64,000 bases of DNA, taken from the NCBI GenBank assembly GCA_026004535.1, contig BPJI01000001.1:324523-388522 (forward strand), written 5' to 3'. Shown piece by piece: positions 6,331 through 62,962 of this stretch. Positions within the stretch are counted from its first letter, which is position 1. Each line of letters begins with the position of its first letter. The notes below the pieces were generated by a model. It worked only from the letters and a program-made list of their open reading frames with translations, had not been told where the DNA came from and did not search any database. Source of the DNA: Candidatus Parcubacteria bacterium (GTDB lineage Bacteria > Patescibacteriota > Minisyncoccia > UBA6257 > HR35). A program made the translations under genes and the position numbers.

Positions 6331-6331
6331 A

Positions 6332-6703
6332 ATGAAAAAATTTCAATTTTTGCCTCATACAGCTGATATTAAAATCAGAGTTTATGGGAAAAACATCGAA
6401 GAAATTATTAATAATTCTTTATTAGCTTTGAGTTCTTATTTAAAACCAAAATTAACAAAACAAAAAATTGAAAGAAAAATTAAACTAAAGGCCGAAACAG
6501 CTGAAGATTTGATTGATTTTCTTTCTCAAGTTTTAGCCCGAATCCATATTGATAAAGCAATCTTTATAAAATTTAAGCAGGGCAAAATTAGGGGTTATAA
6601 ATTCTCAGAACTTTCTAAAGACATTAAAGCCATCACTTATCACCAAACTCAACTAAAAAAAACAAATAACCGCTATATTTTTGATTTTATTATTGATATC
6701 TAA
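6332..6703 (+). CDS. archease
   Basis: N-terminal MKKFQFLPHTADIKIRVYG matches the archease HTAD signature; about 120 aa. Confidence 0.65.
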   Translation: MKKFQFLPHTADIKIRVYGKNIEEIINNSLLALSSYLKPKLTKQKIERKIKLKAETAEDLIDFLSQVLARIHIDKAIFIKFKQGKIRGYKFSELSKDIKAITYHQTQLKKTNNRYIFDFIIDI

Positions 6704-6752: not shown

Positions 6753-6820
6753 TTGACAAAATAAAATAGTTAGGATATAATAAAAATATAATTGACAAAA
6801 TAAAATAGTTAGGATATAAT
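6753..6820 (+). promoter_or_regulatory. two tandem identical sigma70-like promoters (TTGACA-17-TATAAT) upstream of the surface-protein gene
   Basis: TTGACAaaataaaatagttaggaTATAAT at 6753-6781 and again at 6792-6820. Confidence 0.55.
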
Positions 6821-6831
6821 CTAAATTAAAG

Positions 6832-9219
6832 ATGAACAAAAAAATACTTTTATTTACTTTAGTTTTAGGAGGTTTATTGCTCAGTTTTTTCTTTCTCTCT
6901 TTCTTTAAATCTACTTCTGCTCAAGTTTGTCTTCCTCTTAATGGTTATCTTGTTTGGCCAGGAACATGGGAATCAGGCAGAATTCCTATGGCTTCAACAC
7001 AACAATATACCTTATCAAGCTCTCCTTTTTATGTTTCTGGCAATAATGTTGGTTTAGGAACAACCAATCCTGTCTATACTTTTCAAGTTAATGGAGATAT
7101 TTCAGGAACAAGACTTTGTATTGGTAGTGATTGTCGTAATGTTTGGCCTGGTGGAGGAATTGCTGGTTCTGGTTCAGCTGGTCAAGTAGCTTTTTGGACA
7201 GGAACATCAAATATTTCAGGTGACAATGCTCTTTTTTGGGACAATATTAATAAAAGATTAGGAATTGGAACAATATCACCTCAGACATCTTTGCATGTTG
7301 CTGGTAATATCACTGCTAATACTTTTTTAGGTACAATCAATGCAGCTAATATTTCTTCAGGACAATTTGGAGCAAATACAGGAGGAGGAAATTATTACTT
7401 TATGGGTAATGTTGGTATTGGGATGACTACGCCAACAGCTAAGCTTCATGTAAATACAAATGATACAACAATAGTTCCTTTTCAAGTAGATTTTTTAACT
7501 AATCTTTTGCTTTACAGAAAGCCAATAACAATTTCGAATTCTGGTTCAAATTTAACGGATTATCAACTTCTGGTGACAATGAATACTGCCTCTTTAATTT
7601 CAGCTGGTAAAATGAGAAGTGATTGTGGCGATATAAGATTTACTGATTCTGATGGAAGTACTTTTATTGGTTATTGGATTGAATCTGGTTGCAATTCTGC
7701 TTCAACAAAAATTTGGGTAAGAGTTCCTTTAATTCCTGTTGGAACAAAAACAATTTATGTTTATTATGGAAATCCAGAAGCAGCTAGCCAAAGTAAGATC
7801 TGGTACAATGTAAAACACTTGAATATTTATGGCGGAGTTTTCAATTATAAAGCCTCATTAGGAATTAATGGTTATCATTCCAGAGAAATGCAACATAGAT
7901 TAGGAGTTTCTGCTGGAGTGGCTCGTACTTGTATCCTAAAGTCAAATGGTACTGTTGATTGTTTTGGTGATAATCAGTATGGTCAATCAGAAGACTATCT
8001 AGGAGGAGATGCTATAGGAGTTTCTGCTGGATCGTTGCATACTTGCGTTCTAAAGTCAAATGGTAATGTTGATTGTTATGGTAACAATGATTATGGTCAA
8101 TCAGAAGACTATCTAGGAGGAGATGCTATAGGAGTTTCTGCTGGACTTTATCATACTTGTATCCTAAAGTCAAATGGTAATGTTGATTGTTATGGTACTA
8201 ATTATTATGGTCAATCAAATGACTACTTAGGAGGAGATGCTATAGGAGTTTCTGCTGGACTTTATCATACTTGTATCCTAAAGTCAAATGGTAATGTTGA
8301 TTGTTATGGTGATAATCTGTTTGGTAAATCAAATGACTATCTAGGAGGAGATGCTATAGGAGTTTCTGTTGGAATGCATCATACTTGCGTTCTAAAGTCA
8401 AATGGTAATGTTGATTGTTATGGTGATAATTCTGATGGTCAATCAGAAGACTATCTAGGAGGAGATGCTATAGGAGTTTCTGCTGGATCGTCGCATACTT
8501 GCGTTCTAAAGTCAAATGGTAATGTTGATTGTTATGGTAACAATGGTTATGGTCAATCAGAAGACTATCTAGGAGGAGATGCTATAGGAGTTTCTGCTGG
8601 AGGGGCTCATACTTGTATCCTAAAGTCAAATGGTAATGTTGATTGTTATACCCAGGCAAGTGACTATCTAGGAGGAGATGCTATGAATCCATTTAGAAAA
8701 TATGTCTTCCCAACACCAACAACGAATATAGGAGCAGAAGAAAGAGTACAACAACAACAGCCAAAAACAGTCTTTTACATTCAAAATCAAACTGGCAATA
8801 TTGGTATTGGGACAACAGAACCTGAATATAAATTAGATGTTTTTGGAAACATAAGAACAACAGGATGTCTTGTTTATAATGGTGGCACGCTAGGTAGCTG
8901 TATTTCAGATGTTGTTTTAAAGACAAATATTCAAGATTTGAATTTTGAAAATGCATTAAATAAGATTTTATCTCTTCAACCAAAAATTTTTGAGTTCAAA
9001 AACGAACCTGGAAGGATTTACCATGGATTAATTGCTCAAGATGTTGAAAATGTTGCTCCTGAATTAGTAACAGTTGATGAGAAAGGATATAAACAAGTAA
9101 AATATGGAGATATTCAATGGTTATTGCTTGAAGCAATAAAAGAACAACAAGAGATAATGGAAAAGCAGCAAAAAGAAATTGAAGAATTGAAACAACAGGT
9201 TTCAGGGATTAGGGATTAG
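6832..9219 (+). CDS. large exported surface protein: conserved N-terminal domain, 9 RCC1-like repeats, C-terminal peptidase-S74 intramolecular-chaperone (tail-fibre/endosialidase-type) domain
   Basis: Signal/TM MNKKILLFTLVLGGLLLSFFFLSFF. GNVGIG(T/M)T motifs. Nine repeats of about 40 aa (GGDAIGVSAG.HTCVLKSNGNVDCYG.N.YGQS.DYLG). C-terminus …FEFKNEPGRIYHGLIAQDVENVAPELV…YKQVKYGDIQWLLLEAIKEQQE… matches the S74 chaperone domain. Confidence 0.75.
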   Translation: MNKKILLFTLVLGGLLLSFFFLSFFKSTSAQVCLPLNGYLVWPGTWESGRIPMASTQQYTLSSSPFYVSGNNVGLGTTNPVYTFQVNGDISGTRLCIGSDCRNVWPGGGIAGSGSAGQVAFWTGTSNISGDNALFWDNINKRLGIGTISPQTSLHVAGNITANTFLGTINAANISSGQFGANTGGGNYYFMGNVGIGMTTPTAKLHVNTNDTTIVPFQVDFLTNLLLYRKPITISNSGSNLTDYQLLVTMNTASLISAGKMRSDCGDIRFTDSDGSTFIGYWIESGCNSASTKIWVRVPLIPVGTKTIYVYYGNPEAASQSKIWYNVKHLNIYGGVFNYKASLGINGYHSREMQHRLGVSAGVARTCILKSNGTVDCFGDNQYGQSEDYLGGDAIGVSAGSLHTCVLKSNGNVDCYGNNDYGQSEDYLGGDAIGVSAGLYHTCILKSNGNVDCYGTNYYGQSNDYLGGDAIGVSAGLYHTCILKSNGNVDCYGDNLFGKSNDYLGGDAIGVSVGMHHTCVLKSNGNVDCYGDNSDGQSEDYLGGDAIGVSAGSSHTCVLKSNGNVDCYGNNGYGQSEDYLGGDAIGVSAGGAHTCILKSNGNVDCYTQASDYLGGDAMNPFRKYVFPTPTTNIGAEERVQQQQPKTVFYIQNQTGNIGIGTTEPEYKLDVFGNIRTTGCLVYNGGTLGSCISDVVLKTNIQDLNFENALNKILSLQPKIFEFKNEPGRIYHGLIAQDVENVAPELVTVDEKGYKQVKYGDIQWLLLEAIKEQQEIMEKQQKEIEELKQQVSGIRD
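7900..8690. repeat. about 120-bp near-identical tandem DNA repeats (x about 6.5) encoding the RCC1-like blades
   Basis: Repeated tcagaagactatctaggaggagatgctataggagtttctgctgga…cttgcgttctaaagtcaaatggtaatgttgattgttatggt units. Confidence 0.8.
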
Positions 9220-9325
9220 GTTTCAGGGATTAGGGGTTAGCTTTAAGAGCGGAGATCATTTTATTGAGAATTTTCATTATATCTTCTAAAAGTAAATCTA
9301 CTTTAGAGTAATCAAGATCTTTTGT

Positions 9326-9655
9326 TTATTTTAATCTTTTTGCTATTTCTAAATGTGTTTCTAATTCAGCTCCCGAAGCATAAGCAATTCTTAAAAATTG
9401 AATAAAATCTTTTCTTGTTCTTCGCGATCTTCCTTCAGCTATATTGGCCGGGATAGAAACAGCTGCTCTTTTAATTTGACTTACCAATCCATATGTTTCT
9501 TCTTTGGGGAAATATTTGGTTAATTCATAAATTTCCATAACTAATTCAATGGCTTTTTGCCAGACAAGCAGATCTTTATAAGATAGAATTTTTTTATTAC
9601 CAGAGCTTTTTTCATATAATAATTTTACAATATAATTAACCTGACAGCTGACCAC
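9326..9655 (-). CDS. four-helix-bundle protein ('23S rRNA intervening-sequence protein' family), copy 1
   Basis: ILSYKDLLVWQKAIELVMEIYELTKYFPKEETYGLVSQIKRAAVSIPANIAEGRSRRTRKDFIQFLRIAYASGAELETHLEIAKRL. Paralogue of 28995..29378. The N-terminus differs by a 2-nt indel, so there is a possible start or frameshift issue. Confidence 0.6.
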   Translation of the reverse strand: MVSCQVNYIVKLLYEKSSGNKKILSYKDLLVWQKAIELVMEIYELTKYFPKEETYGLVSQIKRAAVSIPANIAEGRSRRTRKDFIQFLRIAYASGAELETHLEIAKRLK

Positions 9656-9674
9656 CTGAAAGCTGACAGCTGAG

Positions 9675-9776
9675 ATGAAAAATCCTGAAGTGGCAAAACT
9701 TTTAAGGATGATGGCAATTTATTTGGAGATGAAAGGAGTTTAGTTTAAACCTCAAGCTTATGAAAAGGCTGCTTAA
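9675..9776 (+). pseudogene. truncated 5' fragment of a DNA polymerase X gene (duplicate of the 29465 start)
   Basis: MKNPEVAKLLRMMAIYLEMKGV*FKPQAYEKAA* is nearly identical to the PolX N-terminus at 29465 and is interrupted by stops. Ends at the palindromic repeat. Confidence 0.6.
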
Positions 9777-9825: not shown

Positions 9826-9854
9826 TTGACAAAATAAAATAGTTAGGATATAAT
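9826..9854 (+). promoter_or_regulatory. sigma70-like promoter (TTGACA-17-TATAAT), identical to those at 6753/6792
   Basis: TTGACAaaataaaatagttaggaTATAAT. Confidence 0.55.
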
Positions 9855-9865
9855 CTAAATTAAAG

Positions 9866-12454
9866 ATGAACAAAAAAATACTTTTATTTACTTTAGTTTT
9901 AGGAGGTTTATTGCTCAGTTTTTTCTTTCTCTCTTTCTTTAAATCTACTTCTGCTCAAGTTTGTCTTCCTCTTAATGGTTATCTTGTTTGGCCAGGAACA
10001 TGGGAATCAGGCAGAATTCCTATGGCTTCAACACAACAATATACCTTATCAAGCTCTCCTTTTTATGTTTCTGGCAATAATGTTGGTTTAGGAACAACCA
10101 ATCCTGTCTATACTTTTCAAGTTAATGGAGATATTTCAGGAACAAGACTTTGTATTGGTAGTGATTGTCGTAATGTTTGGCCTGGTGGAGGAATTGCTGG
10201 TTCTGGTTCAGCTGGTCAAGTAGCTTTTTGGACAGGAACATCAAATATTTCAGGTGACAATGCTCTTTTTTGGGACAATATTAATAAAAGATTAGGAATT
10301 GGAACAATATCACCTCAGACATCTTTGCATGTTGCTGGTAATATCACTGCTAATACTTTTTTAGGTACAATCAATGCAGCTAATATTTCTTCAGGACAAT
10401 TTGGAGCAAATACAGGTGGAGGGAATTATAGTTTTCCTGGCAACGTCGGCATCGGGACGACGAATCCGACTGGAAAGCTACACGTCTATAATGGAAGTAC
10501 AGAATTAATGAAAGTTGTATCTGATGTGGATGTAGTTGGCATCGTGGTAGGACCAGCTATTGGTGGAAGACATTTAATAATTAATGATATTGCTCAAGCA
10601 AGATGGGCATTTGCAACTGGATATTATGATTTATCTATTCAAAATGATTATGGTGGAAGTTGGAATACTAGAATGATAATAACAGAAGACGGCAACGTCG
10701 GCATCGGGACGACGGCGCCCGGGGCGAAGTTGGATGTTGCTGGAAATATAAGCATTAGTGGTGTAGCTGATCTGGGTTTGGATGCAGGTGATGTAGCTGG
10801 CATAGTACCTTGGTATAGAGATATTTTTGCTTTCAAGACCCCAACTAACTTTGAATATTGGGATGGCACATCGTGGGTAGCATTTACTCCTACAAATCCT
10901 CAAGGAATGACTGCATGGGGAGCTGGATCTACAATCATACCGGCAGCAAATAAAGATAAGTTCAGGTTTATAATAGATACTGGTAATAGCGTTGGGTTAA
11001 GGGCAAACTTTCTTGTAGTTAGGGCTAGTGATTGTTGCCCGGGAAGTACTTATAAGGTTGAAGTTGAAGGTAGTAACGATCTAAGCACATGGAGTGGTGT
11101 TTTAACAAGTGGAAGCGGTTTTATGGGAGGCGCTCCAGACGCCCCAACAGTAATACCATTTTCAGGGGGCAACTATAGATATGCTAGGATAACCTTTACC
11201 AAACTTTCAGGTACAAGCACAAATGCATTTAGTATTTATGAATTGCATTTATTTAACAATTGGTCACCAGCTTATGCCAATCTTCCAATAAAATGGGATA
11301 CTAATGGCAACGTCGGCATCGGGACGACGGCGCCTTCTTATAAATTACATGTTCAAGGGGGAGATATTTATGCTTCCTCTTATGTAATAGGAGGGTTAGG
11401 ATTATGTATTGGGTATGATTGTCGAACTTCATGGCCACAAGGATTAACTGGAAGTGGAAGCTCTAACGCAATTGCTGTTTGGACAGGAAGTACAAGTTTG
11501 GGATCATCTATTATTTCTCAATCAGCTGGTAGTGTTAATATAGGTGGATCACTTAGTGTTTCAGGTTCTATTTCAGGTAACAGCGTTAGTGTTTCAGGTT
11601 CTGTTTCAGGTAACAGTGTTAGTGGTAATACATTATGTATTGGGTCTGATTGTCGAACTTCATGGCCACAAGGATTAACTGGGGGTGGAAGCTCTAACGC
11701 AATTGCTGTTTGGACAGGAAGTACAAGTTTGGGATCATCTATTATTTCTCAATCAGCTGGTAGTGTTAATATAGGTGGATCACTTAGTGTTTCAGGTAGT
11801 GGTATTTATACTTCAGGATCTGTTAGTGCATCGGGCGCTGTTAGTGGCAGTATGTTATGTATTGGGTCTGATTGTCGAACTTCATGGCCATCAGGATCAG
11901 GAGGATTAACTGGAAGTGGAAGCTCTACTGCAATTGCTGTTTGGACAGGAAGTACAAGTTTGGGATCATCTATTATTTCTCAATCAGCTGGTAGTGTTAA
12001 TATAGGTGGATCACTTAGTGTTTCAGGTTCTATTTCAGGTAACAGCGTTAGTGTTTCAGGTTCTGTTTCAGGTAACAGTGTTAGTGGTAATACATTATGT
12101 ATTGGGTCTGATTGTCGAACTTCATGGCCATCAGGATCAGGAGGATTAACTGGAAGTGGAAGCTCTAGTGCAATTGCTGTTTGGACAGGAAGTACAAGTT
12201 TGGGATCATCTATTATTTCTCAATCAGCTGGTAGTGTTAATATAAATGGGTCCCTTAGTGTTTCAAATTCTATTTCAGGTGGATCTATATGTATTGGATC
12301 TTCTTGCCGAAGTTCATGGCCCGTAGGATGTAGTTGGCAGGGTGTTAGTTGTAGTAATTATATTTATTTTAGTAACGGCAACGCTAGAGTGTGTATAGAG
12401 TGTCTTAATGGTGTTGTTACTAGTTTTTATATGGAGGGGGGAAGTCTGCCGTAG
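9866..12454 (+). CDS. large exported surface protein, paralogue of 6832 with an identical first about 190 aa; Ser/Gly-rich tandem repeats and a Cys-rich C-terminus
   Basis: The first about 570 nt are identical to 6832. Three copies of the GC-rich motif GGCAACGTCGGCATCGGGACGAC. Four to five tandem copies of about 234 bp (LCIGSDCRTSWP…SLSVSGSISGNSVSVSG). Ends …FYMEGGSLP*, with a frameshifted repeat of the tail downstream. Confidence 0.7.
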   Translation: MNKKILLFTLVLGGLLLSFFFLSFFKSTSAQVCLPLNGYLVWPGTWESGRIPMASTQQYTLSSSPFYVSGNNVGLGTTNPVYTFQVNGDISGTRLCIGSDCRNVWPGGGIAGSGSAGQVAFWTGTSNISGDNALFWDNINKRLGIGTISPQTSLHVAGNITANTFLGTINAANISSGQFGANTGGGNYSFPGNVGIGTTNPTGKLHVYNGSTELMKVVSDVDVVGIVVGPAIGGRHLIINDIAQARWAFATGYYDLSIQNDYGGSWNTRMIITEDGNVGIGTTAPGAKLDVAGNISISGVADLGLDAGDVAGIVPWYRDIFAFKTPTNFEYWDGTSWVAFTPTNPQGMTAWGAGSTIIPAANKDKFRFIIDTGNSVGLRANFLVVRASDCCPGSTYKVEVEGSNDLSTWSGVLTSGSGFMGGAPDAPTVIPFSGGNYRYARITFTKLSGTSTNAFSIYELHLFNNWSPAYANLPIKWDTNGNVGIGTTAPSYKLHVQGGDIYASSYVIGGLGLCIGYDCRTSWPQGLTGSGSSNAIAVWTGSTSLGSSIISQSAGSVNIGGSLSVSGSISGNSVSVSGSVSGNSVSGNTLCIGSDCRTSWPQGLTGGGSSNAIAVWTGSTSLGSSIISQSAGSVNIGGSLSVSGSGIYTSGSVSASGAVSGSMLCIGSDCRTSWPSGSGGLTGSGSSTAIAVWTGSTSLGSSIISQSAGSVNIGGSLSVSGSISGNSVSVSGSVSGNSVSGNTLCIGSDCRTSWPSGSGGLTGSGSSSAIAVWTGSTSLGSSIISQSAGSVNINGSLSVSNSISGGSICIGSSCRSSWPVGCSWQGVSCSNYIYFSNGNARVCIECLNGVVTSFYMEGGSLP
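11395..12330. repeat. about 234-bp near-identical tandem repeats (x about 4.5) inside the 9866 gene
   Basis: ttatgtattgggtctgattgtcgaacttcatggcca… recurs at about 11400, 11637, 11866, 12100 and 12290. Confidence 0.8.
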
Positions 12455-12862
12455 GATGTAATTGGTATGGTGATCTGTGTAGTGTTGATCTTCATATTGA
12501 TACTAATCCTAATGGTCCCGGTGGTGGTTTTAATATTAGAACATGTTTAGTTTGTAACCTTGGTCAAATTACGGATATTTTTATGGAGGGGGGAAGTGAA
12601 AATTAATATTTAAATAAATTATTAAAATCATAAAAAATTTATATTTATAAAAAATCGCGATCTTTCTTTATTGTTTATAAGTTTCAAAAAATTTTAAAAC
12701 AGCAATTTAATTAATTCTTTTTTATAAGATAAATTTTAATATTTTATTGTGATTTTTAAACAAATTTTCGGATTATTGGTTTTGTATATTATAATTATTT
12801 TTGTGAAAAATTTTTATTATTATTTTTTTGTTATTTATTATAATTTTGTTTTTTAGGTTAAA

Positions 12863-13299: not shown

Positions 13300-13660
13300 C
13301 GCTGAGAGCATTATTTTACCCGGATAAATACCGGATTATTTTACCCGGATAACCAACCGGATAATGTTTACCCGGATGAATACCGGATATTAAAATATCT
13401 ACCCGGATAGTCAACCTGATAGATCACCCGGATTATTACTGTATAAATCTGGTTTAAATCCGGGTAGTTATATCAGGTTAATATCCGGGGGATTATATCT
13501 GATTTAAATCCAGGTAACTTATCCGGTCATAATCCGGGTATTTGTATCCGCTTTGGATCAGGGTAGCTTATCCGGTTTAAATCCGGGTGCTATTATCCGG
13601 TTAATATCCGGGTAATTATATTTTCTCCTGCTGTCCGCGGTGAATAATTCTTCCGTGTTA
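13300..13660. repeat. CCGGAT-type periodic palindromic element (about 21-bp phasing), about 360 bp
   Basis: Left half is …tacccggataaataccggattattttacccggataacc…. Right half carries the reverse complements (…atccgggta…atccggt…). Right terminus is CTGCTGTCCGCGGT. Confidence 0.7.
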
Positions 13661-18700: not shown

Positions 18701-19996
18701 ATGATGAAATCAGAGGAGATAAGAAAATTATTTTTAGATTATTTTAAAGCAAGAGGACATAAAATTTTGCCTTCATCGTCATTAATTCCAATTGATGATC
18801 ATTCAGTTTTATTAACTACTGCTGGAATGCAACAGTTTAAAAAATATTATACTCGCGAAAAAGATCCGATTAAAGATTTTGGTACTCAAAGAACAGCAAC
18901 AATTCAAAAATGTTTTCGTACCACCGACATTGAGGAAATTGGTGACGAAACTCATTTAACTTTTTTCGAAATGCTAGGTAATTTTTCTTTTGGTCCTGTT
19001 GGCAAAGATGATCCTCAAAATTTTGGCAGTGATGGTTATTTTAAACGAGCAGCAATCTATTGGGCTTATGAATTTATTAAAAATTTAGATTTGGAAATTG
19101 ATTATGTAACTGTTTTTGGTGGAGAGAGAGATGTACCTTTTGATGAAGAAAGCTATAAGATTTGGAAAGAAGTTGGTTTCTCTGAAGAAAAAATTTTAAA
19201 AAAGGGCAGGGAAGATAATTTTTGGGGGCCAACAGGAGACGAAGGTCCTTGCGGTCCGACAACTGAAATTTATGTGAATAATGTCGAAATTTGGAACTTA
19301 GTTTTTAATGAATATTATCAAGATAAAAATGGAAATTTAAAAAAATTAGAATTTCCTGGAGTTGATACGGGGATGGGATTTGAAAGATTGATGAAAGTTT
19401 CGCAAAATGTACCAACAATTTTTGAAACTGATTTTTTTCAACCGTTAAAAGAAGTTTTGGATCAATTAACAAACAAAGATGATATTCGAAGAAAAAGAAT
19501 AGTTTTAGATCATATTCGGGGGAGTGTTTTTTTGATTGCTGATGGTCTTTATCCCTCAAATTTAGAGAGAGGCTATGTTTTAAGAAGAATTTTAAGAAGA
19601 TTAACTTTGAATTTAAAATTTTTAGATATCAAGATTGAAAAGATTGAAAATATGATTAAAGCAGTTATTGAAAAATATTCTCCTTTTTATCCAGAACTAA
19701 AAAATTATGATAAAATAAAAACAGTAATTTTTGAAGAAATTATAAATTTTGAAAGGACTTTAAACATTGGCTTGAGAGAATTTGAAAAAACAATTAAGGG
19801 AAATGAAAATGATGAAATTTTAGCTGAAAAATTGTTTTTGCTTTATACGTCTTATGGTTTGCCATTAGAAATTAGTAAAGAACTATTAAAAGATAATGGT
19901 CTTGGTTGGACTGAGAAATCTCAGCAAGTTTTTGATGAATTATTTAAAAAACACCAAGAAATATCAAAGGGTAGAATTAGCGAGTTAGCGAGTTAA
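18701..19996 (+). CDS. alaS: alanyl-tRNA synthetase, catalytic N-terminal domain only (431 aa; no editing or C-Ala domains in this ORF)
   Basis: …SSSLIPIDDHSVLLTTAGMQQFK…, …CFRTTDIEEIGDETHLTFFEMLGNFSFG…, …WGPTGDEGPCGPTTEIY…. Confidence 0.75.
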   Translation: MMKSEEIRKLFLDYFKARGHKILPSSSLIPIDDHSVLLTTAGMQQFKKYYTREKDPIKDFGTQRTATIQKCFRTTDIEEIGDETHLTFFEMLGNFSFGPVGKDDPQNFGSDGYFKRAAIYWAYEFIKNLDLEIDYVTVFGGERDVPFDEESYKIWKEVGFSEEKILKKGREDNFWGPTGDEGPCGPTTEIYVNNVEIWNLVFNEYYQDKNGNLKKLEFPGVDTGMGFERLMKVSQNVPTIFETDFFQPLKEVLDQLTNKDDIRRKRIVLDHIRGSVFLIADGLYPSNLERGYVLRRILRRLTLNLKFLDIKIEKIENMIKAVIEKYSPFYPELKNYDKIKTVIFEEIINFERTLNIGLREFEKTIKGNENDEILAEKLFLLYTSYGLPLEISKELLKDNGLGWTEKSQQVFDELFKKHQEISKGRISELAS

Positions 19997-20006: not shown

Positions 20007-21512
20007 ATGAATAAATTTTATTTATATCTTAACAAAGAGGATGAATTGGGAGAAATAATTGAAAAGATTAAAAGAGTGAAAGATAAAGAGATTATTTTAG
20101 TTGTTCCGGAAAAAACAAAAGCCTTATCTCATTCTACTAATTTTGAACTTTTTAAAAAAGAGATTCAAAGTTTAGATAAAAAAATTTATTTTAATACTGA
20201 TGACGAAAAGATAAAAAATTTAGCTAGACAAAATAAATTTCCAATCTTTTTAGAAGAAACAGAAGAAAGAATTTTTGATATTAAGCCACCTAAAAAAAAG
20301 AAAGAGTCCGAAGGAGAAATAACTTTTCAACCAACGAAGCCTAAATTAATATTTAATCTCAAAAAATTTTTCATCTATTTTTTAACATTATTTAGCTTAT
20401 CGATTTTAGGTTTTGTTGGTTTTCGACTTTTTCAAACACAAGCAGAAATAACGATTGAAACTCAAAAAACTCTTTATGATTTAAATGAAGTCATAACCTT
20501 AAAACAAGACCAGACTTTGCCGGATTATGAAAATAAGATTTTGCCTGCTAAATATTTTGAAGTAGATCTAATTAAAACAGAAACAATCAAAACAACTGGT
20601 CGAGTTTTTACTGATGAAAAACCTTATTTAAAAGTTATTTTTCTAAATTATTTAGAAAGAGAAATCCCATTAGTTGCTGGAACTAGGCTTAGTTTTGAGG
20701 GTAATCTCTTTAAAACAACAGAAAGAATAACTATTCCTTCGGCTAAAGATAATCAGCCTGGACAAAAATCTGTTTTAGCTTTACCAGTTAACTTAAAAGA
20801 TGAGACTTTGAAAATTAATAAGGGCGCTGATTTGAAAATTGTTGCCTGGGAAGAAAGTAGAGTAAAAACAGAGGATGGTAGTTTATTTATTGATGTTATT
20901 AAAGCTAAAGTCGAAGAAGATTATGATTATGGTGCTGTTACTAAAATTGGTTCAGTTGCGCCTCAGGATATAACTAATGTTAAATTAGCCCTAGAGGATT
21001 CATTGAAAAAAGCAGTTGCTAGTGATTTAGCCTTAAAAAATCCAGAGACATTTTATCTTTTCGAGCCAGATTTAGTTAACATAGAAATTACTAACATTTC
21101 ACATAATGTTGGAGATAAAACTGATCAGATTTCGGCAACTGGTAAAGCGACTTATGAGACAATGAAGACAAACAAAAAAGACTTTGATGATTTTGTTAAA
21201 AATTTGATTAATCAAGAAATTTTACGTCAAGAAAAAAAATTAATCATCAGTCAGTTAAGGATTGATAAAATTGAACTTTTAGATTTTGATGCTAAGAGAA
21301 AAATAATGACAATAGGTGTTAAGGGGCAAGCGATTTTGGTTCCTGATCTTGTTCCTGAGACTCTTAAAACAGCACTTCAAGGAAAAACAATTGAGGAAAC
21401 GAGGGATTATTTTAAGATTCCTGGTGTTGATAAAGTGACAATTAAAATTTTTCCTAATTGGAAAGAAAAATTACCCTCAGATCCTCAAAAAATTAAGATT
21501 GTCATAAAATAG
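20007..21512 (+). CDS. hypothetical protein (501 aa, one internal TM segment)
   Basis: Long uninterrupted ORF with ordinary codon usage. No motif recognised. Confidence 0.5.
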   Translation: MNKFYLYLNKEDELGEIIEKIKRVKDKEIILVVPEKTKALSHSTNFELFKKEIQSLDKKIYFNTDDEKIKNLARQNKFPIFLEETEERIFDIKPPKKKKESEGEITFQPTKPKLIFNLKKFFIYFLTLFSLSILGFVGFRLFQTQAEITIETQKTLYDLNEVITLKQDQTLPDYENKILPAKYFEVDLIKTETIKTTGRVFTDEKPYLKVIFLNYLEREIPLVAGTRLSFEGNLFKTTERITIPSAKDNQPGQKSVLALPVNLKDETLKINKGADLKIVAWEESRVKTEDGSLFIDVIKAKVEEDYDYGAVTKIGSVAPQDITNVKLALEDSLKKAVASDLALKNPETFYLFEPDLVNIEITNISHNVGDKTDQISATGKATYETMKTNKKDFDDFVKNLINQEILRQEKKLIISQLRIDKIELLDFDAKRKIMTIGVKGQAILVPDLVPETLKTALQGKTIEETRDYFKIPGVDKVTIKIFPNWKEKLPSDPQKIKIVIK

Positions 21513-24425: not shown

Positions 24426-25012
24426 CAAATTTAGTACCAATAGTAATTGAAAAAACACAATATGGCGAGAGAGCCTATGATATTTATTCAAGACTTTTGA
24501 AAGAAAGAATTATTTTCTTAGGCACTCCAATTAATGACATTGTTGCCAATAGTATTATTGCTCAGCTTTTATATTTGGAGCATGAAGATCCAGGTAAAGA
24601 TATTCATTTTTACATTCATAGTCCTGGCGGTGAACTGCCGGCTGCTTTAGCGATTTATGATACAATGCAATTTATTAAATGTGAGATTCGAACAATTGGT
24701 ATTGGTTTAGTTGCTTCGGCTGCCTCAATTTTGTTAGCCGCCGGAACAAAGGGAAAAAGATTTGCTTTACCTAATACAGAGATTTTGCTTCATCAGGTAA
24801 TGGCTGGTCCAATTGGTGGTCAGGCAGTTGAAATTGAAATTGCTGCTAAGGAAATTGTTAAGTTAAAAGAAAAAGTTAATAAAATTTTAGCTGAGCATAC
24901 TGGTCAACCTTTAGAAAGAATTGAAAAAGATACAGATAGGGATTTTTGGCTTTCAGCTGAAGAAGCAAAAAATTATGGTTTGATTGATAAAATTTTAGTT
25001 AAGCGGGCGTAG
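24422..25012 (+). CDS. clpP: ATP-dependent Clp protease proteolytic subunit
   Basis: …[26 protein letters not shown]…HSPGG…[16 protein letters not shown]…. Confidence 0.9.
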
Positions 25013-25077
25013 TTCAGCCAGGTTAGAACGCTGCCCTGTCACGGCAGAGGTCGCCGGTTCAAATCCGGTCGCCCGCG
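25003..25077 (+). tRNA. tRNA-Asp (anticodon GTC)
   Basis: GCGGGCG…CTGTCAC…GCCGGTTCAAATCCGGTCGCCCGC; overlaps the clpP stop codon by about 10 nt. Confidence 0.85.
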
Positions 25078-25758
25078 CTAAATAATTCTTTTTGATTGTT
25101 TTTTCCTCCACTCATCAATTAATTTATGATTTCCGGAAAGCAAAACTTTCGGCACTCTTAAAATCATTTCTTTTTTCTTGAATCTTGAATCATGTATCTT
25201 GATTCTTACTTCCTCCGGTCTTGTATAAACAGAATAAGAATACAATCCCTTGTCCCATCTTTTTTCTTCTAATGATAATGGATGATGCAATACTCCAGGT
25301 AAATGGCGGGAAACAGCATCAACAATGACCATTGCTGGCAATTCACCTCCAGTTAAAACATATTTGCCAATTGAAATTTTTAAATCAACAAATTTTTCAA
25401 TTCGAGCATCAATGCCTTCATAATGACCGCAAATAATAATCAATTGTTTTTCTTGGGCTAATTTCCGAGCTAAGTTTTGATTAAAAATTTCCCCAGCTGG
25501 ATGGGTTAAAATAATTTTTCTTTTCTTAGTTTTAGTTGCTTTTTTAGCTGCTTCTAAAGCTTTATAAACGGGTTCAAATTTAATCACCATTCCTGGCCCA
25601 CCACCATAGGGCTTATCATCCAGTCCATGAGGTTGGGAAAATTTTTTTAAATCAAAAAAGCTTATCTTGATAAGCTTTTTTTCTTGTGCCTTTTTTAAAA
25701 TTGATGTTTCTAAATAAGAGAAAGCTTCAGGAAAAAGAGTAATAATATCAAAAAACAT
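25078..25758 (-). CDS. trmD: tRNA (guanine37-N1)-methyltransferase
   Basis: MFFDIITLFPEAF…GGGPGMV… SPOUT core. Start taken at the internal Met; the longer ORF would overlap a tRNA-derived repeat. Confidence 0.85.
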   Translation of the reverse strand: MFFDIITLFPEAFSYLETSILKKAQEKKLIKISFFDLKKFSQPHGLDDKPYGGGPGMVIKFEPVYKALEAAKKATKTKKRKIILTHPAGEIFNQNLARKLAQEKQLIIICGHYEGIDARIEKFVDLKISIGKYVLTGGELPAMVIVDAVSRHLPGVLHHPLSLEEKRWDKGLYSYSVYTRPEEVRIKIHDSRFKKKEMILRVPKVLLSGNHKLIDEWRKKQSKRII

Positions 25759-25762
25759 CTTC

Positions 25763-25785
25763 TGCCGGGAGTGGGATTCGAATAC
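25763..25785. repeat. partial duplicate of the tRNA-Met 3' end (TGCCGGGAGTGGGATTCGAA)
   Basis: 20-nt exact match to 25888-25907, lying about 100 bp beyond the 3' end of the minus-strand tRNA-Met. Confidence 0.5.
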
Positions 25786-25886
25786 GGTAAACTCCACGCT
25801 TGTGGTAAGACATCGTTCTCTCGCTCTCGTTAATATTAAGTGCTATTTGTTCGCTGGTTTGTAGTGGGTTCTCATCCCACTCCACT

Positions 25887-25959
25887 TGCCGGGAGTGGGA
25901 TTCGAACCCACGACCTGGCGCTTATGAGACGCCCGCTCTAACCCCTGAGCTATCCCGGC
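25887..25959 (-). tRNA. tRNA-Met (anticodon CAT; elongator-type, could be tRNA-Ile2/lysidine)
   Basis: Reverse complement GCCGGGATAGCTCAGGGGTTAGAGCGGGCGTCTCATAAGCGCCAGGTCGTGGGTTCGAATCCCACTCCCGGCA. Confidence 0.85.
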
Positions 25960-26199
25960 TATTATATCTAATTATAACTTAAAAGTTTTTTAGTTAAATA
26001 TTTTCAAGTTAAAGAGCTCACAAGAACATAAAGTAAGACATACGATGTCTTACTATTAATAGATTAGTAAATTATAAATTATATTTTATAATAATAATAA
26101 TTTTATAATAATAATAAATTAAATAATAATGAATCAGGAAAAGTCGAGGTTAATAAATTTAATAAATATTTCGAACATAAGATGTCCGAATATTAAAAG

Positions 26200-27819
26200 A
26201 TGAAACTTCATAATTTTTACTTCCTACTTATTACTTCTTTTTTCGTCGCTATTCTTTTTTCTTCTTACTTTATAATTTTTCAACCATCTTATGCTTGGAT
26301 AAATCCATCCCAAAATCCACCCTTAGGAGGCGGAGTATTACAAACAGACACTTCTGGTTTAAAAATTGTCACCACAACTCAGATCACTTCAGGAAATTTT
26401 ACAGTCAACACCGGCAACGTCGGCATCGGGACGGCAAACCCAAATAGTAAACTTCAAATTGATGATCAATCTGCTTCTCATTATATTGGTCGTTATGATC
26501 CAACTTGTTGTGGATCTTCACAAATCCCAGCGAATCAATTTAGAGGTTTTACAGTATTTTGGAATACAGATTTAGCAATGTTTGGGTTAAGAGATTATGG
26601 AGGCGACAGAAAAGATGTGGTAATAAATAATGAACAAGGAGGGGATAATATTAGATTTCAAATCGCAGGTTCTGATGTAATGTTTATAAGAGGAAGTGAC
26701 GGCAACGTCGGCATCGGGACGACAGCACCAGGGGCAACTGCACGTAGCTTCAGGACTAATTGAAACTGGCACTAGAAGCGTAAAACAGTAATTAAATGTA
26801 GATTCTTGCGGAACAACAAGAGTTACAAGCGTTCTAATGGAATCTGGGCGCTGATTTAGTGGTGGATCGGGATGAATGGTTTATTGGTCGCAAGATAGAG
26901 ATGGCGGAGAAGCAAGCTTAGTTTAGAATGTCGGAACGATGCCAATGATCATATAGCTCTAATGCCTCCGGCAACGTCGGCATCGGGACGACGCATCCGT
27001 GAACAAAGTTGGATGTAGTAGGCTCGATCTAGAACTTAGCAGCTAGTCTCACTCTCTCAGCTATGGTTTGATTGGACAAACTCAAAGCTACGATTTACTT
27101 CGCTCAAGCAGATTACAATCCTGAGCAGTATTACTGGGTTGGTAGCTGAGTTAAATCAAATATGGCACAATAGGGTTATCTGGTGCAAGGAAGCTCTAGT
27201 GGACTTTTGACTTATAGACAGTGGTCTTCAGGAAAGATTGGACTCGGCAGGTGGATACATCAGTTAGCGTTCATGGTTCAAGTGGATAACTTATCTGGCA
27301 TGGATATAGCCAACTACTGGTTCTTGGAGGGAATTGGGCAAGATCTCTTCGATACAGCAAATGTAGGTAAAACATCTAGTTTCTGCAGAATAGATGGAAC
27401 TGGCGATTCCTATATTATGCGGCAACGTCGGCATCGGGACGACAGCACCAGGGTATAAATTAGATGTTGCTGGAGATGTGCATGGAACAAGTTTTCCTGT
27501 TTCTTCTGATATAAGATTTAAGACTAATCTTGAGAAATTAGATAATGTTTTAGCTAAATTAGAAAATATTAATGCTTATAAATTTGATTGGAATGAGTTG
27601 TATCAGAAATTGGGAAGAAGTGATAATCGCAGACATATTGGAGTAATTGCTCAAGAAATTGAAAAGGAATTTCCTGAATTAGTGAGTGAATGGGAGCAAG
27701 ATGGAGTAAAATATAAAGCAGTTGATTATTCAAGATTGACGGTAGTTTTGCTTGAAGCAATCAAAGAACAGCAAAAACAGATTGAGGAATTAAAAAGACA
27801 GCTTTCAGTTTTCAGGTAG
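26200..27819 (+). pseudogene. degenerate tail-fibre-like surface-protein gene: intact N-terminal fragment (26200-26763), frameshifted/stop-interrupted middle, intact S74-chaperone-domain tail (27394-27819)
   Basis: N-terminal signal plus GNVGIGT motifs. Four more copies of the GGCAACGTCGGCATCGGGACG 21-mer at 26413, 26701, 26970 and 27421. Stops between 26763 and 27394. C-terminus …IGVIAQEIEKEFPELV…YKAVDYSRLTVVLLEAIKEQQKQIEELKRQL. Confidence 0.5.
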
Positions 27820-27865
27820 TCGGGTTTCAGCTTCACGGCTTTTTAGGTTATAATTGAGGTGATGA

Positions 27866-28280
27866 AAAAGATAGAGCAGAAATTGAAGAAAAATATTTTA
27901 AGAATAATTGGTAAATATTTGGATTTAAAAAAATATAAAGTTTTCTTTTTTGGTTCAAGGGTGAGTGGGAATTTATAAGCTTGATATTGTTGATTTTAAA
28001 AGCGTGAGTAAAGATTTTTATAAAGTAGCAAAACAGAAAATTGAATTTATTAATAAATGACAAAGATTGATTCTTTAAAAAAACAATTTGAAAAATCTTT
28101 AAATCAGTTTGAAAAAGTTTTAAAGAAAAAGAAAACAGAATTTATTTGTGATTCAGCAATTAAAAGGTTTAAGAAATTTTTCAGTTCATCTTTATGACTA
28201 AAAATTTGCTGATGATTTGTATAAAAGATTGCCAAAAATTTTAGAGATGTTTAAAAAATTACAAAAAAGTTTAGAATAAT
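27866..28280 (+). pseudogene. remnants of a minimal nucleotidyltransferase / HEPN (HI0074-like) pair
   Basis: MKKIEQKLKKNILRIIGKYLDLKKYKVFFFGSRVSGNL* then MTKIDSLKKQFEKSLNQFEKVLKKKKTEFICDSAIKRFKK…*; multiple stops. Confidence 0.3.
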
Positions 28281-28289: not shown

Positions 28290-28440
28290 CAGGGTTAATT
28301 TGAAATACCGGATATTAGTTAACCAGATATTAACCAGATAATATTTATCTACCCTGATGTTAACCGGATAAGTTACCCGGATTATAACCAGATAATATCT
28401 GGTAGACATCAGGGTAATTCATCTGGTAGTAATCTGGGTA
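28290..28440. repeat. CCGGAT/CCAGAT-type periodic palindromic element
   Basis: …ataccggatattagttaaccagatattaaccagataat…; right half …atctggtagacatcagggtaattcatctggtagtaatctgggtag…. Confidence 0.6.
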
Positions 28441-28994: not shown

Positions 28995-29378
28995 TCAGGT
29001 TTCAGCTTTCAATTTTGAGATCATTTTATTTAGCATTTTCATTACATCTTTTAAAAGTAAATCCACCTTAGAGTAATCGATATTTTTTGTTTCTTTCAAT
29101 CTTTTGGCTATTTCTAAATGTGTTTCTAATTCAGCAGACGAGGCATAAGCAATTTTTAAAAATTGGACAAAGTCTCTTCTTGTTCTTCGAGATCGTCCTT
29201 CAGCTATATTGGCTGGAATAGAAACAGCCGCTCTCTTGATTTGGCTTACCAATCCATATATTTCTTCTTTAGGAAAATGTTTAGTTAGTTCATAAATTGC
29301 AATGACTAATTCAATAGCTTTTTGCCATACAAGTAAATCACGATAAGATAGAATTTGCCTGTCAGGAGTTTTTCTCAT
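28995..29378 (-). CDS. four-helix-bundle protein ('23S rRNA IVS protein' family), copy 2
   Basis: MRKTPDRQILSYRDLLVWQKAIELVIAIYELTKHFPKEEIYGLVSQIKRAAVSIPANIAEGRSRRTRRDF…. Confidence 0.7.
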   Translation of the reverse strand: MRKTPDRQILSYRDLLVWQKAIELVIAIYELTKHFPKEEIYGLVSQIKRAAVSIPANIAEGRSRRTRRDFVQFLKIAYASSAELETHLEIAKRLKETKNIDYSKVDLLLKDVMKMLNKMISKLKAET

Positions 29379-29464
29379 ATAATAATTTTATCAAAAATAT
29401 TTCACTGAAAGCTGACAGCTAATTAATTATATGAAAGCTGACAGCTAATTCCCTGAAAGCTAGG

Positions 29465-31183
29465 ATGAAAAATCCTGAAATTGCAAAATTATTAAGGATG
29501 ATGGGAATTTATTTGCAGATGAAGGGAGTTCAGTTTAAGCCGCAGGCTTATGAGAAAGCTGCTTATTCGATTGAGGCTTTGGATGAGGATATTGAAGAAT
29601 TTATTAAAAAAAATGGCAAAGAAGGATTGAAAAATTTACCCGGAGTAGGGGAGTCAATTGCAGAAAAAATAATTGAATATTTAAAAACAGGAAAAATTAA
29701 AGAACTGGAAGAATTAAAAAAAGAAGTACCAGTTGATGTTGAGACCTTAACTTCAATTGAAGGAGTTGGGCCAAAGATTGTTTATAAACTTTATAAAGCT
29801 TTGGGAATAAAAACAATTGAAGATTTAGAAAAAGCTTGTCGGGAGCATAAAATAAGAAGATTGCCTGGATTTGGAGAAAAAAGTGAAGAAAAAATTTTAA
29901 AAGGAATTGAATTTTTCAAACAAGGTGGAGGAAGAGTAATTTTGGGTTTTATTATTCCCGTGGTTGAAGAATTAGTAAGTTATTTAAAAGAAAGTGGGTT
30001 GGCCAAAGAAGTTGTGCCTGCTGGTTCTTATCGTCGAAAAAAAGAAACAATTGGTGATATTGATATTTTGGCTGTTTCTGATAAACCTGAAAAATTAATG
30101 GATTATTTTGTCAAGTTTCCTGAAGTAAGTAATATTTATGCTCAAGGACCAACTAAAACTATGGTTAGACTAAAAATTGGGCTTGATGCTGATTTAAGAG
30201 TTGTACCCGAAGAAAGTTTTGGTGCTGCGCTGGCTTATTTTACTGGCTCAAAGGATCATAATATTAAAATGAGGGAATTGGCAATTAAGAAAGGATGGAA
30301 ATTGAATGAATATGGACTTTTTGATAAACAGGAAAAAATGATAGCTGGCAGAACTGAAGAAGAAATTTATGAAAAACTTGGTTTAGATTGGATACCACCT
30401 GAGATGAGAGAAAATCGAGGTGAGATTGAATTAGCAATGGAGGGGAAATTACCAAAATTGATTGAATATGGTTCAATTAAGGGTGATTTGCAAGTTCAGA
30501 CAAATTGGACTGATGGCCAAAATTCAATTGAGGAAATGGTTGAGGAAGCAATTAAATTAGGTTTGGAATATATTTGCATTACTGATCATACTAAATCTTT
30601 GGCAATGACTGGTGGTTTGGATGAGGAAAAATTATTAAAGCAGATGGCTGAGATTGATAAATTAAATCAAAAATATAAAGGCAAGATAAAAATTCTAAAA
30701 GGAGCGGAAGTTAATATTTTAAAAGATGGTAGTTTGGATATCAAAGATGAAGTTTTGGCAAAATTAGATTTTGTTGGCGCTGCTATTCATAGTCATTTTA
30801 ATTTACCTCGAAATGTTCAAACTGAAAGAATTAAAAAAGCAATGGCTAACCCTAATGTTGATTGTATTTTTCATCCAACTGGCAGAGTGATTAACAAAAG
30901 ACCTGCTTATGAAGTTGATATTGATGAAATTATTGATTATGCTAAAAAGACTAAGACTATTTTAGAAATTGATGCTTATCCTGATAGACTTGATTTGAAA
31001 GATGAACATATAAGAAAGTGTGTTGAAAAAGGAGTAAAGATGGTAATTGATAGTGATGCTCATTCAGTTTTACATTTAGGTTTTTTAGATTTAGGAGTGA
31101 GCCAAGCACGTCGTGGATGGGCAACGCCGTCCGATATTATTAATACTTTAGCATATGATAAATTCAATTCATTAATTCATTAG
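29465..31183 (+). CDS. DNA polymerase X family protein (Pol-beta-like core plus C-terminal PHP phosphoesterase domain)
   Basis: HhH motifs (GVGESIAEKI, GVGPKIVYKL), palm …GSYRRKKETIGDIDIL…, PHP …ITDHTKSLAMTGG…HSHF…DSDAHS…. Confidence 0.85.
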   Translation: MKNPEIAKLLRMMGIYLQMKGVQFKPQAYEKAAYSIEALDEDIEEFIKKNGKEGLKNLPGVGESIAEKIIEYLKTGKIKELEELKKEVPVDVETLTSIEGVGPKIVYKLYKALGIKTIEDLEKACREHKIRRLPGFGEKSEEKILKGIEFFKQGGGRVILGFIIPVVEELVSYLKESGLAKEVVPAGSYRRKKETIGDIDILAVSDKPEKLMDYFVKFPEVSNIYAQGPTKTMVRLKIGLDADLRVVPEESFGAALAYFTGSKDHNIKMRELAIKKGWKLNEYGLFDKQEKMIAGRTEEEIYEKLGLDWIPPEMRENRGEIELAMEGKLPKLIEYGSIKGDLQVQTNWTDGQNSIEEMVEEAIKLGLEYICITDHTKSLAMTGGLDEEKLLKQMAEIDKLNQKYKGKIKILKGAEVNILKDGSLDIKDEVLAKLDFVGAAIHSHFNLPRNVQTERIKKAMANPNVDCIFHPTGRVINKRPAYEVDIDEIIDYAKKTKTILEIDAYPDRLDLKDEHIRKCVEKGVKMVIDSDAHSVLHLGFLDLGVSQARRGWATPSDIINTLAYDKFNSLIH

Positions 31184-36984: not shown

Positions 36985-37047
36985 CCTCTTTTTATGTATC
37001 TGCTTAATTGTATTTCGCCTTTAAATTTTAGCACAATTTTCCACATC

Positions 37048-37075
37048 TTGACATCATATTTTTTCTATTTATAAT
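37048..37075 (+). promoter_or_regulatory. sigma70-like promoter (TTGACA-16-TATAAT) for the pilin-adhesin gene
   Basis: TTGACAtcatattttttctatTTATAAT. Identical copy at 57789-57817. Confidence 0.5.
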
Positions 37076-37081
37076 TAAATT

Positions 37082-37402
37082 ATGAATAAAAAAATGAATA
37101 AATCCTTCACTTTAGTTGAACTCTTAGTTGTCTTAGCTCTAATAGCTATCTTAGCTACTGTCTTAATTGTTGTCATTAAGCCAGCAGATATCTTTAAAAG
37201 AGGTAGAGATAGTCAAAGAACTTCAGACCTTAAAAATCTTGAAAAAATATTTGACCTTATTCTTTTTGAAACTCAAGGCACCTTTTCTGAACTTCAATAT
37301 GCTTCCTCAAATGTTGTCTATATCTCTCTTCCTGATACTTCATCAACTTGTGGTCAATGGATAAGTCAATTACCACAGCTTCCTTCAGGCTGGTCATATT
37401 GA
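37082..37402 (+). CDS. type IV pilin-like module (prepilin N-terminus), terminated by an in-frame TGA that is followed by 296 further sense codons
   Basis: MNKKMNKSFTLVELLVVLALIAILATVLIVV…; TGA at 37400-37402. Confidence 0.7.
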   Translation: MNKKMNKSFTLVELLVVLALIAILATVLIVVIKPADIFKRGRDSQRTSDLKNLEKIFDLILFETQGTFSELQYASSNVVYISLPDTSSTCGQWISQLPQLPSGWSY

Positions 37403-38290
37403 TGCTCAGCAACTCCAACAAATATTGATGGTACTGGCTGGATTCCTATTCCTTTTAATCAATTTTCAAGCATTAATCTTTCTAGACTTTTCATTGATCC
37501 AATCAATAGACCTCCATATTACTATGCATTTGTTGCTGGAGGAAGTTATGCTCTCTATGCTCAATTAGAAAATCCTCAGTCTCAAGCCTCAAAAACAGAC
37601 AATGATAATTATCCTCATCTATTTTCAGTAGGAACAAATAAAAGACTCATTGATCAAGCTCAAGGACTTGTAGGGTATTGGTCTTTTGATGAAGGAAGTG
37701 GAAATATTGCTAATGATTATTCAGGAAACAATAATAATGGAACACTCTATAATGGTCCTCAATGGGTTGATGGTAAAGTAGGTAAAGCTTTAAGTTTTGA
37801 TGGAGTGGATGATTATGTGAATGCATGGACTGGCCCCGGCTCGCAAATTACCGATAGAGTTACTGTGAGCGCGTGGGCTCGTAATGTGGGAGCTCCTTCA
37901 GCGTTTAATACGATTATTGCTAATTATGCTTCGAATGCGGGATGGGCAATACGCACCGCAGAATCGGGGATTAGTTACCTGCATTTCTTAGGACGATCCG
38001 GCGCAGGCGAAGTGCGAGTTATCATTGCTTCCGAGGCGGAAACATTTAATGGTGCATGGCACCATGTCGCATTTACGGTGTCTGGAGGCGTTGCGAGAAC
38101 ATATCTTGACGGTGGTTTTGTTGCTTCCGCGTCTGGTGTTGTGAATTTGCAACCAGCGACGACTACTTTGATTGGGAAGGGTCATATAGGAGGACTTGGC
38201 TTCTGGAACGGTCTTATCGACGAAGTTCGTATCTACAATCGCGCTTTATCAGATCAAGAAATAAAGGTTCTTTATGAAGCAACTAAATAA
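37403..38290 (+). other. in-frame, stop-free continuation of the pilin ORF after the TGA: LamG/ConA-like lectin (jelly-roll) domain
   Basis: Same frame as 37082. No start codon for about 400 nt. …NGAWHHVAFTVSGGVARTYLDGGFVASAS…GLIDEVRIYNRALSDQEI… is a LamG-type signature. Confidence 0.5.
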
Positions 38291-48375: not shown

Positions 48376-48380
48376 GATAT

Positions 48381-57817: not shown

Positions 57818-57823
57818 TAAATT

Positions 57824-61482: not shown

Positions 61483-61484
61483 TT

Positions 61485-62955: not shown

Positions 62956-62962
62956 TATATAA

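Follow-up and report, generated by a model that had tools for sequence, protein, structure and literature searches.

The broken gene at positions 26200-27819 (forward strand) of the window studied here, a 64,000-nucleotide (nt; 64-kb) stretch of contig BPJI01000001.1 from a Candidatus Parcubacteria bacterium, is real, and is an ordinary pseudogene in a locus that recombines fast. It is referred to below as gene 3. The initial annotation had described it as the degenerate third copy of a surface-protein gene, after genes 1 (6832-9219) and 2 (9866-12454), which retains intact ends and may act as a silent donor cassette. We consider it probable that gene 3 is a pseudogenised mosaic member of a fibre family, shaped by recombination at a GC-rich 21-nt sequence (GGCAACGTCGGCATCGGGACG, hereafter the 21-mer, encoding GNVGIGT), and that a dead tract was joined into a gene that was then live. 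The role of the motif at junctions is supported, whereas a role of the gene as a donor is not.

The family to which gene 3 belongs is predicted to consist of secreted, trimeric, phage-tail-fibre-like surface proteins with a signal peptide, beta-helical modules that each open with a GNVGIGT capping motif, and a C-terminal self-cleaving S74 chaperone. Both ends of gene 3 are open, as had been annotated. The open 5' part (26200-26763, 187 amino acids (aa)) has a start codon, a hydrophobic signal or anchor segment (about 26200-26295), a conserved N-terminal segment and two GNVGIGT motifs. It contains 21-mer 1 (26413-26433) and module M2 (26434-26699), which has no lesions against the homologue P0004; past M2 the reading continues out of frame until a TGA at 26761. 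The N-terminus is conserved in P0001, P0002, P0014, P0017 and P0012, and a segment of about 45 aa is common to gene 3 and the first four of these proteins. The 3' open reading frame (ORF; 27394-27819, 141 aa) matches Pfam Peptidase_S74 (PF13884, E=5.1e-18, 65.6 bits against a cutoff of 22) and the distal subunit of a phage long tail fibre (PDB 6f45, E=8e-9). Its intact C-terminal part (27454-27819) holds the Peptidase_S74 domain (27505-27684) with the SDxxxK motif, read off the sequence as S-D-I-R-F-K at 27505-27522, a coiled-coil tail and the stop codon; in this S74 end 113 of 127 aa are identical to P0001, again with no lesions. The 5' and 3' ORFs lie in the same frame, and the 630 nt that separate them are closed in all three frames. 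A continuous ORF from signal peptide through stalk to S74 is required for function, and gene 3 interrupts it with 21 frameshifts and five stops. As it stands, the gene is predicted to make only the 187-aa fragment, which has no chaperone, and hence no fibre.

The middle of the gene is indeed broken by stops in all three frames, and the damaged tract is better bounded as 26734-27419. Homologues of its modules were recovered by a search of 5.8 billion proteins, and lesions were counted in a frameshift-aware, homology-guided alignment to intact homologues, with the same aligner applied to the flanks. Decayed module A (26734-26969; intact homologues P0122/L243 and P0056/L001) is 80% identical in amino acids to P0122 when seven frameshifts and two stops (TAA 26789, TAG 26924) are allowed. 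Decayed module B (26991-27419; intact homologues P0121/L244, P0050/L002 and P0123) reaches 69% identity to P0121 with 14 frameshifts and three stops (TGA 27000, TAG 27037, TAA 27287). The junction between the two modules is formed by 21-mer 3 (26970-26990), the sole exact copy within the broken tract. In total, about 21 frameshifts and five stops were found in the 686 nt of the tract and none in 900 nt of flanking coding sequence, where a uniform rate would predict about 34 lesions; 26 lesions in 686 nt against none in 900 nt are incompatible with uniform decay. At the DNA level, alignment of the window copy with intact homologues opened 11-12 gaps in module A and 23-24 in module B. The intact homologues are gap-free among themselves (77.5% identity for L001 vs L243, 87.4% for L002 vs L244), so the lesions arose on the lineage of the window. 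Substitutions specific to the window are mixed by codon position, with about 50% at third positions, a figure partly confounded by misalignment. Recoding of stop codons was ruled out, since TAA, TAG and TGA are all present and the frames switch.

The damaged tract lies between the two copies of a 34-nt direct repeat. The left copy (26700-26733) contains 21-mer 2 (26701) and encodes ..GNVGIGTTAPG; the right copy (27420-27453) contains 21-mer 4 (27421). Both copies are on the forward strand and 100% identical, and the identity ends abruptly on either side. They also agree in four synonymous choices (ACA GCA CCA GGG), in which a TAPG copy at 10712-10723 differs. Their spacing is exactly 720 nt, or 240 codons, and the first base of the right copy, a C, is the extra base that restores frame 1. 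When one repeat copy was deleted in silico together with the tract, an open 900-nt ORF of 299 aa was obtained, with the order signal peptide-M1-M2-S74. The direct joining of M2 to S74 is found intact in P0004 (53% identity over 230 aa). As far as sequence comparison can define it, gene 3 thus carries a lesion tract bounded by repeats, with lesion-free flanks.

An assembly or consensus artefact, either an intact module pair altered by indel errors (from low depth or polymorphism) or a mis-join at the 34-nt repeats, is an unlikely source of this pattern. Such errors would fit damage that is dominated by indels at about 1 per 30 nt, yet leaves 69-80% residual aa identity, that ends exactly at the repeat boundaries and that leaves zero net length change; a fibre gene in a related metagenome-assembled genome (MAG), locus L004, is likewise split by a single frameshift in an A-run. 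They would not fit stops of the substitution type, such as TAA 26789 where the homologues carry AAC or GGT, and the indels are not bound to homopolymers. Ordinary reads exceed a 34-nt repeat. The other scanned ORFs of the window, including those of 1232, 871 and 655 aa, are free of frameshift signs, and those of at least 100 aa are coherent, mostly with full-domain Pfam matches. The gene next door, which resembles an MNT nucleotidyltransferase, has lost about 104 nt internally, and a deletion of this kind is not an error type.

The closest relative of gene 3 switches at every 21-mer. Positions 24967-26436, which span trmD, tRNA-Met, the intergenic region and the 5' end of gene 3, align without gaps to positions 1-1470 of L005 (97.2% identity), and this identity stops 3 nt beyond 21-mer 1. 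L005 is a contig from a Katase hot-spring MAG; its fibre gene is intact and continues into unrelated modules and Kelch repeats. This 8.2-kb contig (BPGX01000023.1) is labelled Bacteroidia bacterium KatS3mg027, and, being 97% identical and syntenic to a Patescibacteria-like window, it is probably mis-binned. From 21-mer 1 to 21-mer 2 (26412-26724), the best match is L004 6406-6718 (96.2%, gapless), so that M2 corresponds to one module of another gene, carried by the Patescibacteria MAG KatS3mg092. At 21-mer 3 (26970) the partner changes from L001/L243 to L002/L244. From 21-mer 4 onward, the S74 end aligns gaplessly to L003 at 86% nucleotide identity. Gene 3 is therefore a patchwork, to judge from these alignments, of segments with differing closest relatives, every junction of which falls on a 21-mer.

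Gene 3 occupies a hypervariable slot adjoining trmD (25078-25797) and tRNA-Met (25887-25959). These two genes (25078-25959, reverse strand; identified with ARAGORN and Rfam) form the conserved anchor of the locus. In L003, an intact fibre gene of 687 aa lies beside trmD (tRNA_m1G_MT) in the same arrangement as in the window, and window positions 25214-25976 are 79% identical to L003. Only L003 and L005, both close relatives, show the synteny of trmD and the fibre gene: of 80 trmD-anchored loci from metagenomes, none had a fibre gene or a 21-mer nearby. L004 contains an internal module duplication (97% identity) that is bounded by 21-mers. The giant fibre gene of this locus is split (6127-6407) into ORFs of 806 and 1122 aa by one extra A in an A-run directly after a 21-mer, where TATAAAATTAGATG stands in place of the expected TATAAATTAGATG; the extra A could be a homopolymer error or could mark a phase-variable tract.

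Seven exact copies of the 21-mer were found in the window, compared with none in 100 shuffles. Three are in gene 2 and four in gene 3 (26413, 26701, 26970 and 27421), all on the forward strand and thus in direct orientation. All seven of its codons are minor in the genome, each with a usage of 7-16%; for the peptide GNVGIGT, these codons together would be chosen by chance with a probability of 1.7e-7. Of the 33 GNVGIGT sites that the window and five related loci contain, 24 have the exact 21-mer. The use of rare codons throughout points to identity by descent and not to codon preference. For a viral comparison, 120 stretches were fetched with a degenerate GNVGIGT-coding pattern, giving 117 new loci; their 206 GNVGIGT sites have 173 spellings and include no exact 21-mer, which rules out universal conservation of the 21-mer at the DNA level. 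At least 120 exact viral matches were obtained in a separate search and are attributed to database size and ascertainment. Within this set of fibre genes, the 21-mer is kept identical at the DNA level, and the simplest explanation would be that recombination repeatedly resolves there.

The initial annotation had placed two perfect 21-mers in the broken middle of gene 3 and taken them for recombinogenic motifs that were selectively preserved. Only the copy at 26970 lies there; the copy at 26701 is in the open 5' ORF and that at 27421 in the open 3' ORF. The recombinogenic character of the motif agrees with the observation that every change of partner along gene 3 falls on a 21-mer, but selective preservation would rest on the one internal copy, whose probability of escaping damage is roughly estimated at 0.04 for a tract with about 0.14 lesions per nt. 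Across all compared loci, 64 of the 67 intervals between consecutive 21-mers are intact; broken modules between 21-mers are therefore exceptional and form no pattern.

Based on these comparisons, the 21-mer may serve as a homology patch for RecA-type recombination or gene conversion, through which modules would be swapped, duplicated and inserted. The tract would have decayed before it joined its present flanks. A dead two-module tract may have been copied or inserted, from a dead paralogue or from foreign DNA, into a live gene of the form signal peptide-M1-M2-S74 by way of the 34-nt homology, and this insertion would have inactivated the gene; the 299-aa fibre gene would be restored if the stretch between the 34-nt repeats were deleted precisely. 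Homologous recombination or gene conversion is the likely process, since no recombinase, integrase or reverse transcriptase was found in the scanned ORFs, all 21-mers are direct and RecR is present. The adjacent MNT-like gene, with its internal deletion, is also a case of real decay.

Several points weigh against this sequence of events. The lesions are known from a single assembly. Indels are very frequent relative to substitutions, with about 34 gap openings and no more than about 127 substitutions specific to the lineage. Module A is biased towards deletions and module B towards insertions, an odd pattern for simple neutral decay. The length of the tract equals that of an intact A plus B (285+435=720), which we treat as a coincidence. 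The 64-kb window contains no donor copy of the dead tract. We infer both the direction of the event (insertion of a dead tract as opposed to renewal of the ends) and the recombination at the 21-mer, the latter from comparative breakpoints. As for an uninterrupted allele or the same strain, the exact 42-nt junction pattern had no matches in metagenomes, no record exists of proteins exactly identical to the products of the 5' ORF, the ClpP gene or the gene downstream, and a 541-aa conceptual query recovered no near-identical intact allele.

The opposite order of events, in which gene 3 is an old pseudogene decayed in situ whose ends were later renewed by gene conversion, or were kept by selection on separate 5' and 3' products, is a minor possibility. 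Gene conversion at 21-mers is plausible, and the 96% identity of M2 to a module of another genome suggests a recent arrival. Renewal would however need two independent conversions that stopped exactly at both copies of one 34-nt repeat. Up to 21-mer 1, the 5' end keeps collinearity with trmD and tRNA-Met and a constant identity of 97%, which resembles vertical descent and not conversion, and an S74 fragment of 141 aa that lacks a signal peptide is not known to have an independent role. Import of a dead tract is the most economical account, since renewal of the ends needs more events.

A quite unlikely variant of the import of a dead tract is that gene 3 is an expression-site copy in an OFF state: the dead tract would have been received from a degenerate reservoir elsewhere, deletion between the repeats would turn the gene ON, and the 21-mer would be a maintained recombination signal. 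If true, this would represent recombinational phase and antigenic variation of host-attachment fibres in Patescibacteria, with modules swapped within and between genomes, and the roles of donor and recipient would be reversed with respect to a silent cassette.

The proposal that gene 3 is itself a silent donor, that is, an unexpressed reservoir from which modules are copied into the expressed fibre genes by gene conversion, is very improbable. It is in line with the 21-mer repeats at recombination junctions, with the perfect state of the one internal 21-mer despite the damage around it, and with the identical 5' end and exchanged 3' body of genes 1 and 2. BLASTN of gene 3 against genes 1 and 2 yielded only tracts of at most 58 nt at the motif (about 84%); the S74 regions of genes 3 and 1 are 69% identical over 139 nt, and the N-terminus is unrelated. 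To call gene 3 a third copy of the same gene was therefore an overstatement, although its description as a degenerate family member with intact ends is supported. The alignment to genes 1 and 2 proposed in the initial annotation gave the outcome that it had itself named as refuting the donor role: no tract is shared beyond the neighbourhood of the motif, and the donor reading is unsupported on this ground. Gene 3 is also built the opposite way to a silent cassette: it keeps its start codon, its signal peptide and an upstream region that is 97% identical to that of the intact syntenic orthologue in L005. The part that would be donated, the variable one, is wrecked, and its 26 or so lesions would be inherited by any recipient. 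There is no cassette array, the modules between 21-mers are nearly all intact elsewhere (64 of 67), and the search of 5.8 billion proteins recovered nothing intact or expressed that is close to A or B (best 80% and 69% aa identity, respectively). A cassette of the pilS or vls type thus lacks support in each of its testable defining features.

Genes 1 and 2 form a pair with a shared head and swapped tails, like Bd2133 and Bd1334 of Bdellovibrio. The upstream region and 5' end (6792-7451 vs 9826-10485) are 96.5% identical over 660 nt, 300 nt of which are at 100%, and this identity ends 26 nt beyond a 21-mer. The bodies are unrelated: gene 1 contains RCC1 repeats, DUF2341 and S74, and gene 2 has GNVGIGT modules and Ser/Gly-rich 231-nt repeats with no S74. 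About the last 50 nt of the coding sequence of gene 2 (12321-12370) are repeated just past its stop (12449-12498, 74%), which suggests either that one more repeat was truncated here or that the gene once continued and lost this part.

Site-specific mechanisms were also considered. No recombinase or integrase Pfam match was present among the scanned window ORFs of at least 100 aa. A shufflon or invertase was ruled out, as the 21-mers are all direct, there are no inverted repeats and the scanned ORFs contain no recombinase. A diversity-generating retroelement was ruled out as well: no reverse transcriptase (RT) domain occurs in the scanned window ORFs, and self-BLAST gave no pair resembling a template repeat and variable repeat (TR/VR). 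A scan for promoters and terminators stayed at the level of shuffled sequence. Genes with the PF05635 domain (23S rRNA-intervening-sequence or bAvd-like four-helix bundle) adjoin fibre genes three times, at 9326-9655 and 28995-29378 (both reverse strand) and at L243 1399-1791. The two window copies are 81% identical together with their flanks (9252-9775 vs 29017-29565). The bAvd-like genes nearby stand alone, with neither RT nor TR/VR.

The closest known counterparts of the family are the mosaic adhesive trimer (MAT) fibres of Bdellovibrio bacteriovorus. The report on these proteins describes subgroups with S74 (SDxxxK) and without it, recurring capping loops with the consensus V-G-G/N-pi-x-x-P-x-x-x-L, a beta-rich domain of about 130 aa that is conserved and comes straight after the signal peptide, and paralogues whose C-termini are exchanged (Caulton et al., 2024; PMC10769870). 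The present genes are similar in their signal peptide, in a stalk that is predicted to be long and beta-helical and repeats a motif resembling the capping loop, and in ending with S74 or a different tip. Several paralogues also occur per genome, some of which are nearly identical at the N-terminus and have exchanged C-termini, as genes 1 and 2 do here. The GNVGIGT..KL.VAG motif gives a direct sequence match to the structure of Bd2133 (8ond); GNVGIGTTxPxxKL of gene 3 aligns to it with E=1.6e-4 and resembles the published MAT consensus without being identical to it. Bdellovibrio is however a predator, whereas the host here is probably an episymbiotic member of the Patescibacteria, and the excerpted text of PMC10769870 mentions neither invariance of the motif at the nucleotide level nor decayed members. 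The S74 fibres and tailspikes of phages (K1F endosialidase, the T5 L-shaped fibre, S16/T4-like gp37) are similar in S74, SDxxxK and the match to 6f45, but gene 3 is chromosomal, has a signal peptide and has no phage genes nearby in the window.

In T-even phages, distal tail-fibre and adhesin genes reportedly recombine at His-box or glycine-rich motifs. The likeness lies in short conserved motifs that bound variable segments and act as crossover points, giving mosaic adhesins. The patch is here one exact 21-nt rare-codon sequence common to several genomes, and the mechanism is suggested by the breakpoints only. In pilE/pilS of Neisseria and vlsE/vls of Borrelia, short direct repeats also flank variable segments and several members occur, a matter of resemblance only. 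Silent cassettes lack a promoter, a start codon and a 5' coding region of their own; gene 3 has an ATG, a signal peptide and an upstream region (97% identical to the intact orthologue in L005). Unlike them, gene 3 has no extended high-identity framework in common with an expression locus (the best matches to genes 1 and 2 are 58 nt long at 84% and 139 nt long at 69%), its variable segment, which a cassette would keep translatable so that conversion gives functional variants, has about 26 disabling lesions in 686 nt, and no promoterless cassette array is found. Short repeats are also the sites at which invertible tail-fibre segments (Cin/Min/Gin) and Rci shufflons vary the C-terminal ends of fibre or pilus proteins; the present case differs in that the 21-mers are direct and the scanned window ORFs include no recombinase.

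Patescibacteria live attached to other cells, and their host recognition is largely unknown. The locus suggests MAT-like fibres of phage derivation whose modules are exchanged one by one at a single exact 21-nt sequence common across genomes; if true, attachment specificity could change rapidly by a simple route. The finding itself is of limited importance, as it concerns one dead member of the family, but it is useful because the patchwork exposes the recombination junctions. Gene 3 should not be catalogued as an antigenic-variation cassette. The less familiar part, and the one worth following up, is a single exact rare-codon patch of 21 nt across AT-rich genomes.

The stretch downstream of gene 3 is decaying as well. 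At 27859-28197 (forward strand), the MNT-like nucleotidyltransferase with its internal deletion of about 104 nt is followed by a short remnant ORF. Window positions 27849-27968 and 27972-28058 match L005 6852-6971 and 7079-7165, where the corresponding ORF (6814-7167) is unbroken and has a match to Polbeta/NTP_transf_2.

A 19-nt hairpin-forming element, TAAGACGTACGACGTCTTA, occurs at seven sites in the window, exactly or with at most two mismatches (4486, 4504, 6710, 9783, 13767, 26034 and 45390), against zero expected. Most of these sites are a short distance upstream of a gene, and serS and each of the three fibre genes are among the genes concerned; the element was not found in any of the 324 fetched loci. 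Interspersed intergenic arrays of units of about 25-27 nt, of the type ATCCGGTTTAAATCCGGGT (68-87% identity, both strands), are located at 6243-6330, 13310-13640, 28307-28440, 48000-48380, 55460-55534, 61477-61717 and 62798-62977.

A 563-nt duplicate (98%; 36989-37550 vs 57730-58292) carries two type IV pilin-like genes with the N_methyl motif, each followed by a different lectin-like gene, one with Laminin_G_3 (37805-38290) and the other with PA14 (58490-58972). Here, too, a 5' unit has been duplicated while its partner varies, as in genes 1 and 2. A split AlaRS was considered as a sign of indels and ruled out, as 18701-19996 encodes a 431-aa catalytic-domain AlaRS; the unrelated 501-aa ORF that follows (20007-21512) has no Pfam match. 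The 1232-aa ORF at 50657-54355 (reverse strand) combines a helicase (DEAD/ResIII), Toprim and topoisomerase IA and is a reverse gyrase. This points to a thermophile as the source of the AT-rich genome, in agreement with the 97% match to contigs from the Katase hot spring.

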